Shown: positions 5,017 to 39,514, counted from the first letter of the whole stretch. The stretch: 62,762 bases of DNA, filler included, from Nitrospinota bacterium (GCA_030620925.1; 5 parts of 5 records of this genome joined end to end with filler, not necessarily neighbours in it), one strand, 5' to 3'. Notes: generated by a model not told the origin, from the letters alone. A program made the numbers and translations.

Positions 5017-6234
5017 TCAGTAGAGTTGCACTACCTTGCCTTTTTTCACGGTGAGGATGAAGATCTCCTTCTCTGCATCTCCGTTGGCAAGGAAAGTGGT
5101 GAAGCCCGACACGCCCGGATATTCTACCAGGTTGAGCAACGCTTCCTCCACAGAGTCTCTTTTGTGAATACCGGCCTGGATGAATTTCAGCAGGATGAAA
5201 GTAGTGTCGAAAGCCTGGGCGGATATTATGTCCGGCTCCACGCCGAAGGTATTTTTGAATCCGTTAACGAAATCGGCCACGTGAGTCCATTCTGATCCGA
5301 CGAAGAATCCATCCACGAACACCGCCCCCTCCAGATAGCTCCCGCCCCATTCCAGGAGCTTCTTGGAGTTCCACCGGCTTGTCCCCAGCAGCTTGAGGTC
5401 GCCCAGGTTGTAATAATCAAGAGCGCGGATTATGAGGCTAACGTCTGCCGGATCGCCGGGGATGAATATAGCCTGGAATTCCAGTGGTGTGGTGTCGTCA
5501 AACTCAGCATATATTCCCTCATATTTGTTCTCTTCCTCAGTTTTTTCTTCCGGTAGTTCCTCGTCGGAGTAGCCGCCCATGCTGGTGAGCAACTCTCCAA
5601 AATCGGTGTCTTCAGAATGATAGGAAAGGGAATAGAGGATTTCCCCGCCGTTTTCCTCGACCCTTTGCAGGAAGTTCTCCTGCATCTTTTTCCCCATGGG
5701 GTTTAAAGGGTAGAGGACGGAAAATGTGAATATACCCATTTTGTGCATGGCGTAATCGACCAGTTGGTTCACCTCCTGTTCACCAGTTATGCTGTTTCTG
5801 AAGAGGTAGGGCGAGAGGTTGGTTATGTCGGGGGCCACGGCCGTGGGGGAGATGGCAGGGATACGCAGGTCGGAGGCTATGGGGGCGACCTCTTCGACGC
5901 TCTCACTGAACGCGGGGCCGATGACTGCCAGTACCTGTTTATCGTTTCCGAGTTTTCTTAATGCTGAAGCGGCAAGAGCCGGATCACCCTGAGAGTCTTC
6001 GATGGACAGCCTGATGTCCACCTCCAGCTCCTCCAATTGAACGCTCATAGCCAGCTGGACCCCTTTGAGGATTCGTTCCCCTATCCATTTCTTGTTGCCG
6101 GAGAAGGGCGCTATCAGCCCTATTTTCACTACTTCAGGTTTCTTTCTAAACCACTCTGCGTGCACACCCTGTTGAAGCGAGAGGGGTGAGAACAAGAAGA
6201 GAATTAAAAGAATTTGGGCGACAGTTTTTTTCAT
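5017..6234 (-). CDS. periplasmic binding protein type 1 (LpoA/LppC-like or branched-chain amino acid SBP)
   Basis: Signal peptide, KIGLIAPFSG, VIGP, AQAFD, YPGVSGFTTF. Confidence 0.75.
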   Translation of the reverse strand: MKKTVAQILLILFLFSPLSLQQGVHAEWFRKKPEVVKIGLIAPFSGNKKWIGERILKGVQLAMSVQLEELEVDIRLSIEDSQGDPALAASALRKLGNDKQVLAVIGPAFSESVEEVAPIASDLRIPAISPTAVAPDITNLSPYLFRNSITGEQEVNQLVDYAMHKMGIFTFSVLYPLNPMGKKMQENFLQRVEENGGEILYSLSYHSEDTDFGELLTSMGGYSDEELPEEKTEEENKYEGIYAEFDDTTPLEFQAIFIPGDPADVSLIIRALDYYNLGDLKLLGTSRWNSKKLLEWGGSYLEGAVFVDGFFVGSEWTHVADFVNGFKNTFGVEPDIISAQAFDTTFILLKFIQAGIHKRDSVEEALLNLVEYPGVSGFTTFLANGDAEKEIFILTVKKGKVVQLY

Positions 6235-17308: not shown

Positions 17309-19063
17309 ATGAAAAGGATGAGTGATCGCAAGTATCAAATTTTAATAGTAGTTCTGATAGCCGTCGCCTCTGTGGTGGCGGTAATCTGGTTTGCCGGAGT
17401 CGGTTTTTTCAATAAAAAAGTTTTCACCCAGGCCGAACGGAGGGATGTTAAAGAAGATGTGAGGATAAGCGGTTCAGCCTCCGCCATTCCGCTTATGAAG
17501 ATCGTCGCTCATGAGTATATGGAAAAAAATCCCAACGTGAAGATTAAGTTTCTCCTCGAAACCCATTCCAGAGGGGGATTATCCAGCGCCTACAAAGGGG
17601 AAGTCGATTTAGGGGTACTCTCGAGGACCATTACCTCCGAGGAGGAACAGTTTAAAATGAGGTTCCTCCATTTAGCCAACGACGTGCTGGTTTTCGCCAC
17701 CCATCACTCGGTTAATGTCGACAACCTCACGAGCCGGCAGATAAAGGATATTTACTCCGGCAAGATAACTAACTGGAAGGAAGTGGGTGGGTCTGACACG
17801 AATATCGTGGTTATCGACAGGCCCGAACATACTTCACCCAAAATAACCTTAAGGGGACTGCTGTTCGGGAAAGACCTGGTTATCTCTTCAGATGTTATGT
17901 CGCTGGAGCGCCCCTGGCAGATGAATGAATCCCTCAAGACCATATCCCACTCCATCGGCTACACTTCTCTTGCGGATATAATCCGCGAGAACCTGAATTT
18001 AAATATTTTGAAGATTGACGGGGTGAGCCCCAGTCTGGCCAACGTGGAGAACCAGAAGTACAAGTATTTCAGACCTTTCGGTTTTGTGCTGAGCCCATCC
18101 CCCAGCAAGCAGACCATGCGGTTGGTCAATTTTGTCTACAGCGAAGAGGGGAGCAAGATAATAGAGAACGCCGGGTATGCGCCGGTGATCATGACGCTGG
18201 TCATAGCGACCATTCCCGAGCGAAGCGTGTTAAGGCAGGAGGAGAGATACAGGCCGTTGATACACTATTTGTATCGCAGGCTGGGCAGCCAGGTGCGCAT
18301 CAGGCTGAAGCATCTACCCAGTTATGAGCAGGTGGTTGAGGAGTTTATGGCCGGGAAGGTGAACGCCGCATTCTTAGGCAGTTTAACCTATGCGCTGGCC
18401 CAGACCAAGGTCGGCGTGACCGCCATCGCCCGACCGGAGAAAAACGGTGTTTCCCAGTACAGGGGACTCATCTTTACGCGCAAAGACAGTGGTATAAAAA
18501 GCTGGAAAGACCTTAAAGGGCGGAGTTTGGCTATGATTGAGGCTACCACTGCCGGAGAGATATTTCCCAAACTCTACTTGAAAAAGTACGGGGTGGATAA
18601 CTTAGAGGCGTTCCTTGGAGATATAGTCTACGTAGGCAGCCATGATGATGCCATCTTAAAGGTCCTTAACGGGGAAGTGGATGCCGCTGCGGCCAAGGAT
18701 TTGATCTTTTACAAGTTGGCTCAGGAAATACCCCGGCTGAAAGAGGAAATTAGCATCCTGGCCACCGGTTTCCCCGCGCCTGAGAACGCTCTTACCATAC
18801 GTAAGGATATAGACATAAAGTGTTATAACTGTCACGCTCTGCGAACCGGTCAACAGTCGGAAGGGAAGATATTTCATAGAGGAAGGTGGGACGGGCTGGA
18901 AAACAGTCTGCGAAGAGCATTATTGGACCTCAACGATACGGAAGAAGGAAGGGCGGTCCTGGAACAGTTCGGCGCTGACCGATTTGTGAAGACCACCGAC
19001 GAGGACTATCGCGAACTCTATGAGAGTCTAAAAAAGTTGGGGATCGATTTAAACCGCAACTGA
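17309..19063 (+). CDS. membrane-anchored fusion of a PstS-like binding domain and a PhnD-like binding domain with a CxxCH motif
   Basis: N-terminal TM; DIYSGKITNWKEVGG.D (PstS-like); Y.GLIFTRKDSGI, GSHDDAI..V..GEVDA (PhnD-like); KCYNCH at 18818-18835. Confidence 0.8.
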   Translation: MKRMSDRKYQILIVVLIAVASVVAVIWFAGVGFFNKKVFTQAERRDVKEDVRISGSASAIPLMKIVAHEYMEKNPNVKIKFLLETHSRGGLSSAYKGEVDLGVLSRTITSEEEQFKMRFLHLANDVLVFATHHSVNVDNLTSRQIKDIYSGKITNWKEVGGSDTNIVVIDRPEHTSPKITLRGLLFGKDLVISSDVMSLERPWQMNESLKTISHSIGYTSLADIIRENLNLNILKIDGVSPSLANVENQKYKYFRPFGFVLSPSPSKQTMRLVNFVYSEEGSKIIENAGYAPVIMTLVIATIPERSVLRQEERYRPLIHYLYRRLGSQVRIRLKHLPSYEQVVEEFMAGKVNAAFLGSLTYALAQTKVGVTAIARPEKNGVSQYRGLIFTRKDSGIKSWKDLKGRSLAMIEATTAGEIFPKLYLKKYGVDNLEAFLGDIVYVGSHDDAILKVLNGEVDAAAAKDLIFYKLAQEIPRLKEEISILATGFPAPENALTIRKDIDIKCYNCHALRTGQQSEGKIFHRGRWDGLENSLRRALLDLNDTEEGRAVLEQFGADRFVKTTDEDYRELYESLKKLGIDLNRN

Positions 19064-19271
19064 TCGAGAATTGACCTTTTCACAGGGTTGTGCACCTGCC
19101 CGGGGTATCGGGCGGGTTATAGAGGCGTTCCAGTGAGGCGGGGCGAGGATTGCCTCTGCTCCGGATTATATCAAGGTTAAGGGGTCTGGGAAGGAATCCG
19201 CTCGCCGGAGTCTAATCATACCCATGATGGTGGAGCGGGGGTATTCACATTAAGTTCTGCGGTGAGAATCG

Positions 19272-21464
19272 ATGGCTGTCTTCAAATTACCTCCTTTGAG
19301 AAAAGGCATTCACGCCAGGATTTTAATCCCTGCGGTGATAATGACGGTCACCATAGGGGTGATAACAGTTCTGGTATCTTCCAAAATAATCACCGGCAGC
19401 ATTGAATCGCGCGCCAGTGAGTATATGGAAAACAACGACAACCTTTTTTCCCAGATACTGATGGAGCAGGAAGAGAAAGTGGCTTTCTATTCCCAGTTTA
19501 TGGCCGACATGGTTAAGCTCTCTCGCCAGATTTCGGGCACCCCCACCGGACGCTCCATGCTCATCTACCTTCTGGAATCGCTGGAGCGGGAGGGGATAAA
19601 AATAAATATTTACAGGAGCAAATTTAAGTTCGAGGATGCTCGGCAGATTTTGATTCAGAAAGGCTACCTGGGCATCAGAGCCACCGGCGTATTGGAGCTG
19701 AACAGGAAGAACACCCCTTACATGGCCATGGTGGGAGTTTCTCCCGTGGAGAGGAAGGAGGGCATAACAGAGGTGGTGCTTGCCACCCATGAGATCGATG
19801 AAGATTTTCTTAATAATATTAAGAATAAGACGGGAGCCGACCTTTACTTCTTTTACAGCGACGGCTCCGTATTGTCCACGCTGAAGGATTCTGCATGCGT
19901 GGAACGAATCAGAGAGGTGTTTGTTAACCGGCTGGGCGCTTCTGTTATAAAAGAGTTCTCTGATCGCACGATTACCCTGAACTGCGGAGGCAACCCCCAG
20001 AAGATAATATTTAAGCCTCACATTGTGAACTTGAATGCTAAAGGTGTCTATGCTCTTTCAGTACCTATGAGCGATCTCCTCATGGCCCGGAAGCAGCTGA
20101 CTCTGCAGGTGGTGCTCATGATGGTATTCATGCTTTCTTTGATCATAATCATTTACTCTCTTGTCGTACGAAGGATAGTTCATCCCATTCAAGACCTTTC
20201 GGAGGCCACCGAGAAGGTGGCCCGGGGTGATCTTACTCAGAGCATAGATATCCGCTCAGGGGATGAACTGGGCGAATTGGGTTATAACTTCAACCGGATG
20301 ATTATGCAGCTCTATGCCGCGCGCACTGCCATGGAAGCGCTTCACACCAGACAGATGGAGCGGGCGGAGCGCCTGGCCGTACTGGGTCAGATGGCCAGCG
20401 GTGTCGCCCATGAGTTTAATAACATACTGGCCATCGTGTTGGCCAACGCCCAACTCCTGCTCAGAAGCATGGGTAAAGACACTAAAGCGTTGAGGAGAAT
20501 TAACGCCATAGAGCAAGCCGCCAAGGATGGCGCCCAGACGGTTCAACGCATGCAAGAGTTCGCCCGGGTTCGCAAGGATGAGACTTTCATTTACGTGGAT
20601 TTGAATCAAGTGCTGAGTGATGTGGTGGAAGCCACCAGACCGCGCTGGAAAGTACAATCTGAACGCGAAGGACATCCTGTGGAAATGGACGTCAGGTTGG
20701 GGGATACGATGCCTGTATCGGGTAATCCTGCTGAGCTGCGGGAAGTTATAACCAACCTGATTTTCAACGCCCTGGATGCCATGCCCCGGGGGGGGAAGAT
20801 TATCATCGAGACCAAAATGGATAATAACGAGGCGGTGATGACCTTCGCCGATACGGGTATAGGTATGTCCCCGGAGGTACAACAAAGGGTCTTCGACCCC
20901 TTTTTCACCACCAAAGAGTTCAGCAGCTCCGGCCTGGGGTTGAGCGTATCTTATGGAATCATCTCTCGGCACGGAGGCGAAATACTGGTGGATAGCGTGG
21001 AAGGCCAGGGCACCGTGTTCACCCTGAGACTCCCGTTAAGCGAGAGAAAGGATGAGGAGGCTGCCACCGAGGTTGTCTCCGAGATTCATCACAGCGCAAA
21101 AGTTTTAATTATAGATGATGAGCAGGGAATACTCGATGCCCTATCGGACTCGCTGAGCGCCATGGGGCATGAAGTAAGCACGGCGGGAAGCGGAAAAGAA
21201 GGCCTGGAGAAGTTCGATAAAAAGAAGTACGATGTGGTGTTCACCGATCTGGGGATGCCGGATATGAATGGATGGGAAGTGGCCAGGGCTATAAAACAGA
21301 TAAGCCCCAAGACCCCGGTAGCTATGATTACCGGTTGGCACATGGAGCTTAAAGAAGATAAAATGAAGAGGGAAGGGGTGGACCTGGTTATCACCAAGCC
21401 CTTCGAAATGGATAGCTTGCAGCGGGTCATGGCCGAAGCCCTGTCGCTTAAGTCCAAGATGTGA
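19272..21464 (+). CDS. hybrid sensor histidine kinase (TM-periplasmic-TM-HAMP-HisKA-HATPase-REC)
   Basis: DELGEL..NFNRM (HAMP), VAHEFNN, NLIFNA, DTGIG, PFFTTK, GLGLS; REC IIDDE, TDLGMP, KPF. Confidence 0.95.
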   Translation: MAVFKLPPLRKGIHARILIPAVIMTVTIGVITVLVSSKIITGSIESRASEYMENNDNLFSQILMEQEEKVAFYSQFMADMVKLSRQISGTPTGRSMLIYLLESLEREGIKINIYRSKFKFEDARQILIQKGYLGIRATGVLELNRKNTPYMAMVGVSPVERKEGITEVVLATHEIDEDFLNNIKNKTGADLYFFYSDGSVLSTLKDSACVERIREVFVNRLGASVIKEFSDRTITLNCGGNPQKIIFKPHIVNLNAKGVYALSVPMSDLLMARKQLTLQVVLMMVFMLSLIIIIYSLVVRRIVHPIQDLSEATEKVARGDLTQSIDIRSGDELGELGYNFNRMIMQLYAARTAMEALHTRQMERAERLAVLGQMASGVAHEFNNILAIVLANAQLLLRSMGKDTKALRRINAIEQAAKDGAQTVQRMQEFARVRKDETFIYVDLNQVLSDVVEATRPRWKVQSEREGHPVEMDVRLGDTMPVSGNPAELREVITNLIFNALDAMPRGGKIIIETKMDNNEAVMTFADTGIGMSPEVQQRVFDPFFTTKEFSSSGLGLSVSYGIISRHGGEILVDSVEGQGTVFTLRLPLSERKDEEAATEVVSEIHHSAKVLIIDDEQGILDALSDSLSAMGHEVSTAGSGKEGLEKFDKKKYDVVFTDLGMPDMNGWEVARAIKQISPKTPVAMITGWHMELKEDKMKREGVDLVITKPFEMDSLQRVMAEALSLKSKM

Positions 21465-23220: not shown

Positions 23221-23320
23221 NNNNNNNNNNNNNNNNNNNNNNNNNNNNNNNNNNNNNNNNNNNNTTAATTAATTAANNNNNNNNNNNNNNNNNNNNNNNN
23301 NNNNNNNNNNNNNNNNNNNN
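23221..23320. other. artificial contig linker
   Basis: 44 N + TTAATTAATTAA (six-frame stops) + 44 N. Confidence 0.97.
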
Positions 23321-32560: not shown

Positions 32561-32660
32561 NNNNNNNNNNNNNNNNNNNNNNNNNNNNNNNNNNNNNNNN
32601 NNNNTTAATTAATTAANNNNNNNNNNNNNNNNNNNNNNNNNNNNNNNNNNNNNNNNNNNN
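32561..32660. other. artificial contig linker
   Basis: 44 N + TTAATTAATTAA + 44 N. Confidence 0.97.
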
Positions 32661-36531: not shown

Positions 36532-36631
36532 NNNNNNNNNNNNNNNNNNNNNNNNNNNNNNNNNNNNNNNNNNNNTTAATTAATTAANNNNNNNNNNNNN
36601 NNNNNNNNNNNNNNNNNNNNNNNNNNNNNNN
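36532..36631. other. artificial contig linker
   Basis: 44 N + TTAATTAATTAA + 44 N. Confidence 0.97.
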
Positions 36632-39414: not shown

Positions 39415-39514
39415 NNNNNNNNNNNNNNNNNNNNNNNNNNNNNNNNNNNNNNNNNNNNTTAATTAATTAANNNNNNNNNNNNNNNNNNNNNNNNNNNNNN
39501 NNNNNNNNNNNNNN
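39415..39514. other. artificial contig linker
   Basis: 44 N + TTAATTAATTAA + 44 N. Confidence 0.97.

Follow-up and report, generated by a model that had tools for sequence, protein, structure and literature searches.

What does a phosphate- or phosphonate-type binding protein do beside a histidine kinase when no transporter is encoded with it? This question is raised by two genes in a stretch of DNA from a Nitrospinota bacterium (GCA_030620925.1), 62,762 nucleotides long and referred to here as the window. The first gene (17309..19063) encodes a tethered tandem binding protein of 584 residues, P0001, and the second (19272..21464) a hybrid histidine kinase of 730 residues, P0002. Both lie on the + strand, as do all features of the pair described below, and they are separated by a spacer of 208 bp (19064..19271). 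The original prediction, made from the sequence alone, took the pair for a two-ligand periplasmic co-receptor and the kinase that it feeds. On balance, we favour a sensor pair resembling LuxP/LuxQ or AioX/AioS, with no transporter, in which the tandem binding protein has acquired a haem c. That P0001 is a co-sensor and not a component of a transporter can be held with considerable assurance.

A conserved fusion of two binding-protein domains

We analysed P0001 by Pfam search and AlphaFold2 (AF2) modelling, and both flytrap domains were confidently modelled (mean predicted local distance difference test, pLDDT, 85.7). An N-terminal hydrophobic stretch (residues ∼10–33, 17336..17407), for which the model has a helix spanning residues 3–33, is consistent with a signal anchor. 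It is followed by a PstS-like domain (residues 45–280, 17441..18148; PBP_like_2, PF12849, 2e-29) and a PhnD/PtxB-like domain (residues 299–567, 18203..19009; Phosphonate-bd, PF12974, 5.4e-53). This agrees with the fusion originally described, in which the PhnD-like part had been placed from about 18190; the Pfam match starts at residue 299, nucleotide 18203. Near-identical DNA was found in sequencing runs whose labels read marine sediment, sediment or cold-seep metagenome. Four of these runs, each from a separate study, yielded contigs that span both the junction of the domains and the intergenic spacer with no indel. Because these independent contigs bridge both, neither the fused frame nor the gene order is an assembly artefact, and the possibility that the frame consists of two separate genes, named at the outset as fatal to the idea, finds no support.

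The fusion is conserved. A search of a 5.8-billion-protein collection returned ∼100 proteins of 540–630 residues that carry both Pfam domains, at 31–73% identity, and 96 full-length homologues (at least 500 residues) share the two-domain architecture. Among these 96, a strict expression for a lipobox-like motif matched 54, and 20 have a transmembrane (TM)-like stretch without a lipobox. A profile search of a 50%-identity library gave 31,678 matches at E up to 0.001. Of the best 150 library representatives, just ∼13 matched over the full length in a single stretch; the others were tandems of another kind or stand-alone proteins, either PstS-like or PhnD-like. Loci were collected from species-representative genomes with an alignment of homologues as the query, which replaced a single-protein query that had retrieved only distant Lactobacillus PhnD-like genes. 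All 38 loci came from metagenome-assembled genomes (MAGs) or uncultured bacteria, with Syntrophobacterales, Thermodesulfobacteriota, Acidobacteriota, Nitrospirae, Abyssobacteria, Poribacteria and Myxococcales among the labels. The fusion is thus a conserved family, so far seen in MAGs and metagenomes only.

Both domains resemble anion-binding proteins of known structure. In Foldseek comparisons, the PstS-like domain matched 4gd5 (TMt 0.87, 31% identity), and the PhnD-like domain matched ArrX (6x8w, TMt 0.89), PtxB (5jvb, 0.80) and AioX (0.77). By sequence similarity, PtxB was the closest of these (6.9e-24), followed by ArrX (2.3e-14) and AioX (6.9e-9). The motifs first remarked on as altered in the PstS-like part (GSASA, HSRGG and RPEHTSP) are indeed present in the translation; aligned to phosphate-bound PstS 4gd5, GSAS takes the place of GSTS, HSRGG of GSSAG and RPEHTSP of REDGSGT, and the canonical phosphate-contact motifs GS[ST][ST], GSxxG and RxxGSGT do not occur in P0001. 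The altered motifs are conserved in the family (S56, H86, D100, R171, S176 and K178), with S56, D100 and R171 retained at positions aligned to the PstS anion site. Conserved residues of the PhnD-like domain comprise Y339, Y384, T413-T414-A415, H445 and K463-D464. We take the ligand contacts of the aligned residues to be those of the PstS and PhnD structures. Since residues aligned with the PstS and PtxB anion sites are conserved in both domains, a double anion site is possible in P0001.

Family models place P0001 apart from the transport proteins. Of the NCBIfam models, only TIGR01098 was passed (125.9 bits, cut-off 112.05); scores fell short of the cut-offs for TIGR02136 (PstS; 134.7 versus 206.6 bits), TIGR00975 (22.2 versus 205) and TIGR03431 (PhnD; 118.1 versus 261.1). 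The ESM Atlas yielded generic PBP_like_2 clusters only (∼0.90).

A CxxCH insertion that covaries with Met270

The PhnD-like domain contains an element that PtxB lacks. PtxB aligned to residues 296–504 and 531–569 of P0001, so the 26 residues in between (505–530, 18821..18898) are an insertion. It opens with CYNCH (C505, C508 and H509; nucleotides 18821-18835), and these two cysteines are the only ones in P0001. In an alignment of 35 members the insertion starts with C[YFLVIA]xCH. Exactly one CxxCH is present in 88 of the 96 homologues, always 42–45 residues after an [AG]AKD motif, and its histidine and both cysteines are invariant in all 88; in the other eight, the insertion is missing altogether. 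In a further 143 library representatives, CxxCH was confined to fused or N-terminally truncated fused members and was never seen in stand-alone PhnD-like proteins.

A CxxCH motif in an exported protein, in an organism capable of cytochrome c maturation, is the classical site of covalent haem-c attachment. As in c-type haem sensor proteins, the motif is combined here with an export signal, either an anchor or a lipobox, and the source genome (G000) has four Cytochrom_C_asm (PF01578) matches above cut-off as well as several multihaem cytochrome matches. We infer from these sequence features that P0001 quite probably carries a covalent haem.

A second position follows the motif. Residue 270 (codon 18116..18118) is methionine in 88/88 CxxCH bearers and Q, K, K, E, R, R, T or I in the eight haem-less homologues. 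In the locus set, Met270 was present in all 26 CxxCH loci that cover both sites, and four haem-less loci had E, K, K and K. Among library representatives it occurred in 7/7 haem-type and 0/10 haem-less fused forms, four and three of which, respectively, also belong to the set of 96. G258 (80/88 versus 0/8) and P61 (81/88 versus 2/8) behaved similarly. In a FastTree phylogeny rooted at the midpoint, the eight haem-less homologues formed one clade, sister to the 88 (support 0.987). This covariation suggests that Met270 is likely the distal, or sixth, ligand of the haem. Because Met270 lies in the PstS-like domain and CxxCH in the PhnD-like domain, the haem would then bridge the two.

These findings bear on the part of the original prediction that concerned function. 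The co-receptor idea holds insofar as the gene is a conserved neighbour of a kinase and is found without a transporter, but it overlooked the inserted CxxCH and its covariation with Met270. A haem-free co-receptor for two oxyanions, in which CxxCH would serve as a structural disulfide or a metal site, is in our view unlikely. It would account well for the conservation of anion-site-aligned residues in both domains, which extends to the haem-less sister clade, and for the fact that the arsenic-oxyanion sensors ArrX and AioX are among the closest solved folds; moreover, PhnD-like domains of TtrS and ThsS sense tetrathionate or thiosulfate, according to the available text of PMC5408782. Yet neither a disulfide nor a metal site fits easily with a histidine that is invariant along with both cysteines, with the location of the motif in a dedicated insertion of an exported protein whose host has cytochrome c maturation genes, or with the constraint on Met270 only where CxxCH is present.

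Still less likely is a haem-based gas sensor, in which a five-coordinate haem, or one weakly ligated by methionine, binds NO, CO or O2 and the anion sites are vestigial. Precedents exist in Cache_heme, for which a sensor fold's gain of a CxxCH insertion (10.64898/2026.02.01.703092) and NO binding by a receptor (10.64898/2026.05.25.727664) are reported in the accessible parts of those papers. In its favour, too, the alignment of 35 members shows no conserved His or Met within the insertion itself. But the invariant Met270 suggests a six-coordinate His/Met haem of the kind typical of electron transfer and redox sensing, the anion-site residues are strongly conserved, and the neighbouring genes (see below) encode cytochromes, not NO-detoxifying functions.

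The kinase and its linkage to the fusion

P0002 is the complete hybrid kinase that had been described, with a large N-terminal part that Pfam leaves unmatched (residues 1 to ∼295). Its cytoplasmic transmitter (20160..21425) consists of HAMP (residues 297–347, 20160-20312), HisKA (371–433, 20382-20570), HATPase_c (485–590, 20724-21041) and REC (Response_reg, 611–718, 21102-21425) domains, as assigned by Pfam. The periplasmic sensor domain (residues ∼39–274, 19386..20093) was modelled by AF2 with a mean pLDDT of 84.5 as a long helix followed by two alpha/beta modules, flanked by two TM helices, a dCache/double-PDC-like fold. Foldseek matched it to the dCache domain of TlpA (6e0a, E 4.9e-9), to PctA, vpHK1S-Z8, DctB and KinD, and to the periplasmic domain of LuxQ taken from its complex with LuxP (2hj9_D, TMt 0.56). 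This domain is presumed to be the docking partner of the tandem protein. A complex prediction with P0001 49–584, P0002 40–274 and haem, run without controls, scored 0.30 and 0.01 against a mark of 0.32, which speaks neither for nor against contact.

The sensor domain also has two cysteines, C209 (19896-19898) and C238 (19983-19985), each present in 17 of 29 aligned partners and lacking in the closest relatives, of Syntrophobacterales type. They may form a disulfide.

Linkage of the two genes was assessed at 31 informative loci, obtained from the 38 by setting aside five with less than 350 bp downstream and two (L105 and L110) that are not fused members. At 29 of them, a gene on the same strand, 0–400 bp downstream, encodes an N-terminal region of ∼290 residues homologous to P0002 1–295 (tblastn, E 1e-20 to 1e-55). 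The partner domain was found at every locus whose fusion bears CxxCH (27/27). Five whole genomes other than G000 were searched with the sensor-domain and fusion profiles, and each profile matched once per genome, the two matches lying side by side. The sensor profile matched once in G000 as well, and the fusion protein had one full-length match there, adjacent to it, plus a PhnD-like fragment on another contig. This type of sensor domain is therefore single-copy and beside the fusion in 6/6 whole genomes. The cytoplasmic output of the partners varied: HAMP-HK, HAMP-PAS-HK-REC, HK-REC and, once, HK-PilZ. With the N-terminal sensor domain conserved and the output variable, the pattern is one of a retained sensing module with changing outputs.

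In an Acidobacteriota chromosome (L095, 8653-10839), the partner gene stops after 335 residues, and a phage-type integrase gene on the opposite strand overlaps its end. This may be a disrupted copy, or masked bases may be involved, as the alignment row ends in X.

Neighbourhoods of related loci

We scanned 171 open reading frames (ORFs), from about –2.6 to +5.2 kb around the gene, at the related loci. None encodes an ABC permease or transporter ATPase, the sole ABC_tran match being a UvrA-like protein. No such gene was found among the ORFs scanned on the window's own contig (C419) either, in line with the original observation. Neither pstCAB nor phnCE/ptxAC occurs on C419 or in the related loci scanned, and no aio, arx or arr gene was seen among the neighbours in either. 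The survey of homologues that had been proposed thus finds them beside kinases (29/31 loci) and not in transporter operons (0/171 ORFs).

Signalling and cytochrome genes are often found in these neighbourhoods. Sigma-54 response regulators (REC-AAA-HTH_8) are encoded at 11 fused-family loci. The closest relatives (L075–L079, L089 and L111) are flanked by CheY-like receivers, and REC-HD_5 proteins occur at L081 and L108. ORFs with at least four CxxCH-like motifs were present at 14 of the 36 fused-family loci, a count made without a background control. At L091, the order is sigma-54 regulator, a TGGCAY-N5-TTGC site, multihaem cytochrome and MtrB/PioB porin.

Three further arrangements deserve description. 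In two Nitrospirae MAGs (L090, 5050-11854; L101, 5011-11809), a haem-less variant has a split arrangement: first a HAMP-HisKA-HATPase kinase, then the tandem binding protein, after it a dCache-HAMP-PAS-HisKA protein without a detected HATPase_c, and last a sigma-54 regulator, with a multihaem cytochrome downstream. This recalls the PcrS/PcrP/PcrR genes of perchlorate reducers, as far as these are set out in the available text of PMC3884062. In three loci of Abyssobacteria/Poribacteria type (L096, 4308-6841; L104, 3580-6663; L085, 3512-6012), a cytochrome with 20 CxxCH-like motifs precedes the tandem gene. Ahead of that cytochrome is an LpoB-like gene in L096 and L104, joined by a CsgG-like gene in L104; the preceding ORF of L085 has no Pfam match. 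At L105 (5877-11859), a stand-alone PhnD-like protein of 383 residues, without CxxCH, is encoded between a protein like EB_dh (a haem b family) and two HAMP-PAS kinases; a sigma-54 regulator lies upstream, and NosL is close by. This looks like another sensing module based on a binding protein.

The neighbourhoods weigh against two further explanations. P0001 could act in periplasmic redox chemistry, as an enzyme or electron carrier that might, for example, oxidize a bound reduced oxyanion via the haem; it would be co-regulated by the kinase without itself signalling to it. A substrate-binding fold combined with a haem, and the multihaem cytochromes nearby at 14 loci, would suit such a role. 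We nevertheless regard it as very unlikely: no catalytic residues are apparent, and the gene arrangement, two-component genes included, is unchanged in relatives without haem. Furthermore, since the periplasmic domain family of the kinase is found only beside the tandem protein (six genomes), a physical partnership fits better than mere co-regulation. It is scarcely credible that P0001 is an orphan substrate-binding protein of a phosphate/phosphite/phosphonate ABC importer encoded elsewhere, with kinase adjacency incidental, as the names given to homologues by their sources ('phosphate/phosphite/phosphonate ABC transporter substrate-binding protein') and the TIGR01098 score might imply, given the absence of permease and transporter ATPase genes from all 171 neighbouring ORFs, the partner domain kept at 29/31 loci and one-to-one in 6/6 genomes, and the wide margins by which TIGR02136 and TIGR03431 were missed.

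Contig and genome context

Several contigs, joined end to end, make up the window, with N runs at 23221-23320, 32561-32660, 36532-36631 and 39415-39514. The pair lies on the first of these, C419 (window 1-23220); the last, C426, occupies 39515-62762. Genes past 23220 (an ACAD fragment, a carbamoyltransferase, HemN-like and MoaA) are not true neighbours of the pair. On C419, the genes upstream encode SnoaL, HIRAN, NTP transferase, MgsA, an orphan Peripla_BP_6 protein, YidD and an M50 peptidase, as well as pilMNO, aroB, a TPR protein, an M24 peptidase, efp, accB and accC. The context 3′ of the kinase is 1.7 kb long and holds a truncated thiamine pyrophosphate (TPP) enzyme before the contig ends; a cognate sigma-54 regulator is not on this contig. 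The orphan binding protein (405 residues, LivJ-like, 5017-6234, – strand) adjoins MgsA and YidD on a contig that has no transporter genes.

Between 17000 and 21700, Rfam gave no match at E up to 0.1. Simple promoter and terminator scans found weak consensus matches only, with no convincing terminator in the spacer.

The pair had been described as more AT-rich than accC. Its GC content (0.496 for the P0001 gene and 0.508 for the P0002 gene) is indeed below that of accC (0.557), but it is unremarkable, since the stretch 1-39514 averages 0.512. An argument for horizontal transfer from the AT-richness is rejected on the same ground.

The source genome is a 2.5-Mb MAG of 89% completeness. Its lineage seems sparsely sampled: of 40 relatives, one belongs to the same family, and the remainder are related at the level 'same domain'. 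None of the 40 has a full-length copy of the fusion, the same-family genome included; the sole match, in G007, spans only the PhnD-like half. Another contig of the source genome, C404, encodes a HAMP-PAS histidine kinase, a sigma-54 response regulator, a CheY-like receiver and a 295-residue multihaem cytochrome with a NapC/NirT-like N-terminus (L119, 1294-6209, – strand), and a CCG/Fer4 protein and a NarI-like protein adjoin it. We considered this module as a missing output of the window pair and treat it as a separate system because it has its own HAMP-PAS kinase.

A proposed mechanism and the evidence against it

How might a haem-bearing sensor pair work? P0001 would be exported and held at the membrane by its N-terminal anchor, exposing two Venus-flytrap domains. 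In the periplasm, haem c would be bound covalently at CxxCH, with His509 as proximal ligand and Met270 as distal ligand, so placed that it joins the PstS-like and PhnD-like domains. A change in the redox state of the haem, or displacement of its ligand, would alter the shape of the tandem, and a bound anion might contribute. The dCache/LuxQ-like periplasmic domain of the kinase would read this change and set autophosphorylation. Output would pass here through the kinase's own receiver and, in relatives, through a sigma-54 activator, a CheY-like receiver or an HD-GYP-type regulator, often encoded beside multihaem cytochromes and once beside a porin–cytochrome conduit.

The inserted CxxCH, covarying with Met270, points to redox state or a ligand of the haem as the most likely signal. 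An anion may be integrated with it, given that residues aligned with the anion sites of solved relatives are retained in both domains (S56, D100 and R171; Y339, Y384, T413-T414 and H445). That the signal is redox- or electron-transfer-related in the narrower sense is plausible, with a chance somewhat below even. More tentatively, the haem may be a redox-switchable latch between the flytraps that, together with anion occupancy, sets the geometry read by the kinase. The pair would then combine redox gating with oxyanion sensing to control multihaem cytochromes and porin–cytochrome conduits for extracellular electron transfer.

Several observations weigh against a haem-based sensor pair. Two loci, L094 and L106, lack the partner kinase domain, and both are haem-less. 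Haem-less fused relatives are instructive too: H445 and other PhnD-type residues are invariant in CxxCH-bearing and haem-less homologues alike, and the haem-less forms keep the same anion-site residues and two-component contexts. The ancestral function did not need haem, and an anion may be the main signal. Because the haem-bearing and haem-less homologues are sister clades, the covariation of CxxCH with Met270 amounts to a single evolutionary event. In the AF2 model, pLDDT is below 50 for residues 506–528, although this might be expected of a haem loop modelled without haem. The association with multihaem cytochromes comes from the uncontrolled count given above. In the window itself, the pair sits between housekeeping genes, accB and accC on one side and the TPP enzyme on the other, and no response regulator, Hpt protein or cytochrome gene adjoins it.

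Comparison with known sensing systems

AioX, ArxX and ArrX act with AioS and AioR in arsenic oxyanion sensing, as described in the accessible text of PMC5908839. Like AioX and ArrX, P0001 has a PhnD-like binding protein fold, lies beside a sensor kinase and is found without a transporter, and many related loci share with AioXSR a sigma-54-dependent response regulator. Unlike the single-domain AioX type, it is a tethered tandem, extended by a PstS-like domain and with CxxCH inserted. As there is no cysteine outside CxxCH, it lacks an equivalent of the arsenite-binding Cys106 of AioX, and the neighbourhoods scanned show no link to arsenic oxidoreductase genes. The sensor domain of P0002 is dCache-like, whereas that of AioS is listed as sCache-like in the part of PMC8050422 available.

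LuxQ, like P0002, is a hybrid kinase with a receiver. In the LuxP–LuxQ system for autoinducer-2, as in the window pair, a binding protein is combined with a kinase whose periplasmic domain is double-PAS/dCache-like, and LuxP docks on LuxQ. LuxP nonetheless belongs to another binding-protein family, has no haem and shows no detectable sequence similarity to P0001; it is given as a single-domain Peripla_BP_4 protein in the same portion of PMC8050422. The window pair would work like AioXSR and LuxPQ but is a member of neither.

Its mode of origin has parallels elsewhere. Cache_heme, where an established sensor fold took up a short CxxCH insertion, is called the first documented case in the accessible text of 10.64898/2026.02.01.703092, and PAS-haem domains are known from the Geobacter chemoreceptors GSU0582 and GSU0935 (cited in the available part of PMC3831638). 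P0001 shares with Cache_heme/DUF3365 and with GSU0582/GSU0935, so far as these texts describe them, a periplasmic sensor module, a single CxxCH gained by a short insertion and an occurrence in bacteria rich in c-type cytochromes. Here, by contrast, the scaffold is a type II periplasmic binding protein, the haem module is separate from the kinase, and the candidate distal ligand comes from a fused second domain. P0001 does not have the Cache fold that defines Cache_heme (DUF3365/Tll0287), so the resemblance is one of evolutionary mode only.

TtrS and ThsS likewise use a PhnD-like fold for sensing and not for transport, in the respiratory regulation of sulfur oxyanion reductases (PMC5408782, in the part available). 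Their PhnD-like domain is, according to the same text, haem-free and within the kinase polypeptide; here there are a separate tethered tandem and a kinase with its own dCache-like domain. The importer proteins PstS, PhnD and PtxB have both folds and part of the anion-binding residues in common with P0001, but P0001 differs from them in its fused domains, its altered motifs (GSAS, HSRGG and RPEHTSPK), its haem motif and its conserved kinase partner, and no pstCAB or phnCE lies nearby. We found no description of a haem-bearing periplasmic binding protein or of this tandem in full-text searches, whose coverage excludes subscription journals.

Implications

Binding-protein-dependent kinases are known from few systems, namely LuxPQ, TorTS, AioXS and HptAS. 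To these the pair described here adds a binding protein that is tethered, built as a tandem and apparently equipped with a covalent haem. A systematic mis-annotation is corrected as well, in that genes named for an ABC transporter substrate-binding protein are found without a transporter. If haem binding is true, periplasmic binding-protein folds, like Cache folds, can gain a cofactor by a short insertion. If the latch is real as well, a second, independent haem-c motif has been recruited into a sensor fold, here that of a periplasmic binding protein. Through this pair, uncultivated sediment bacteria can probably sense extracellular redox state or an oxyanion. Haem binding, if true, would provide a handle on how multihaem cytochromes are regulated in uncultivated anaerobes of marine sediments.

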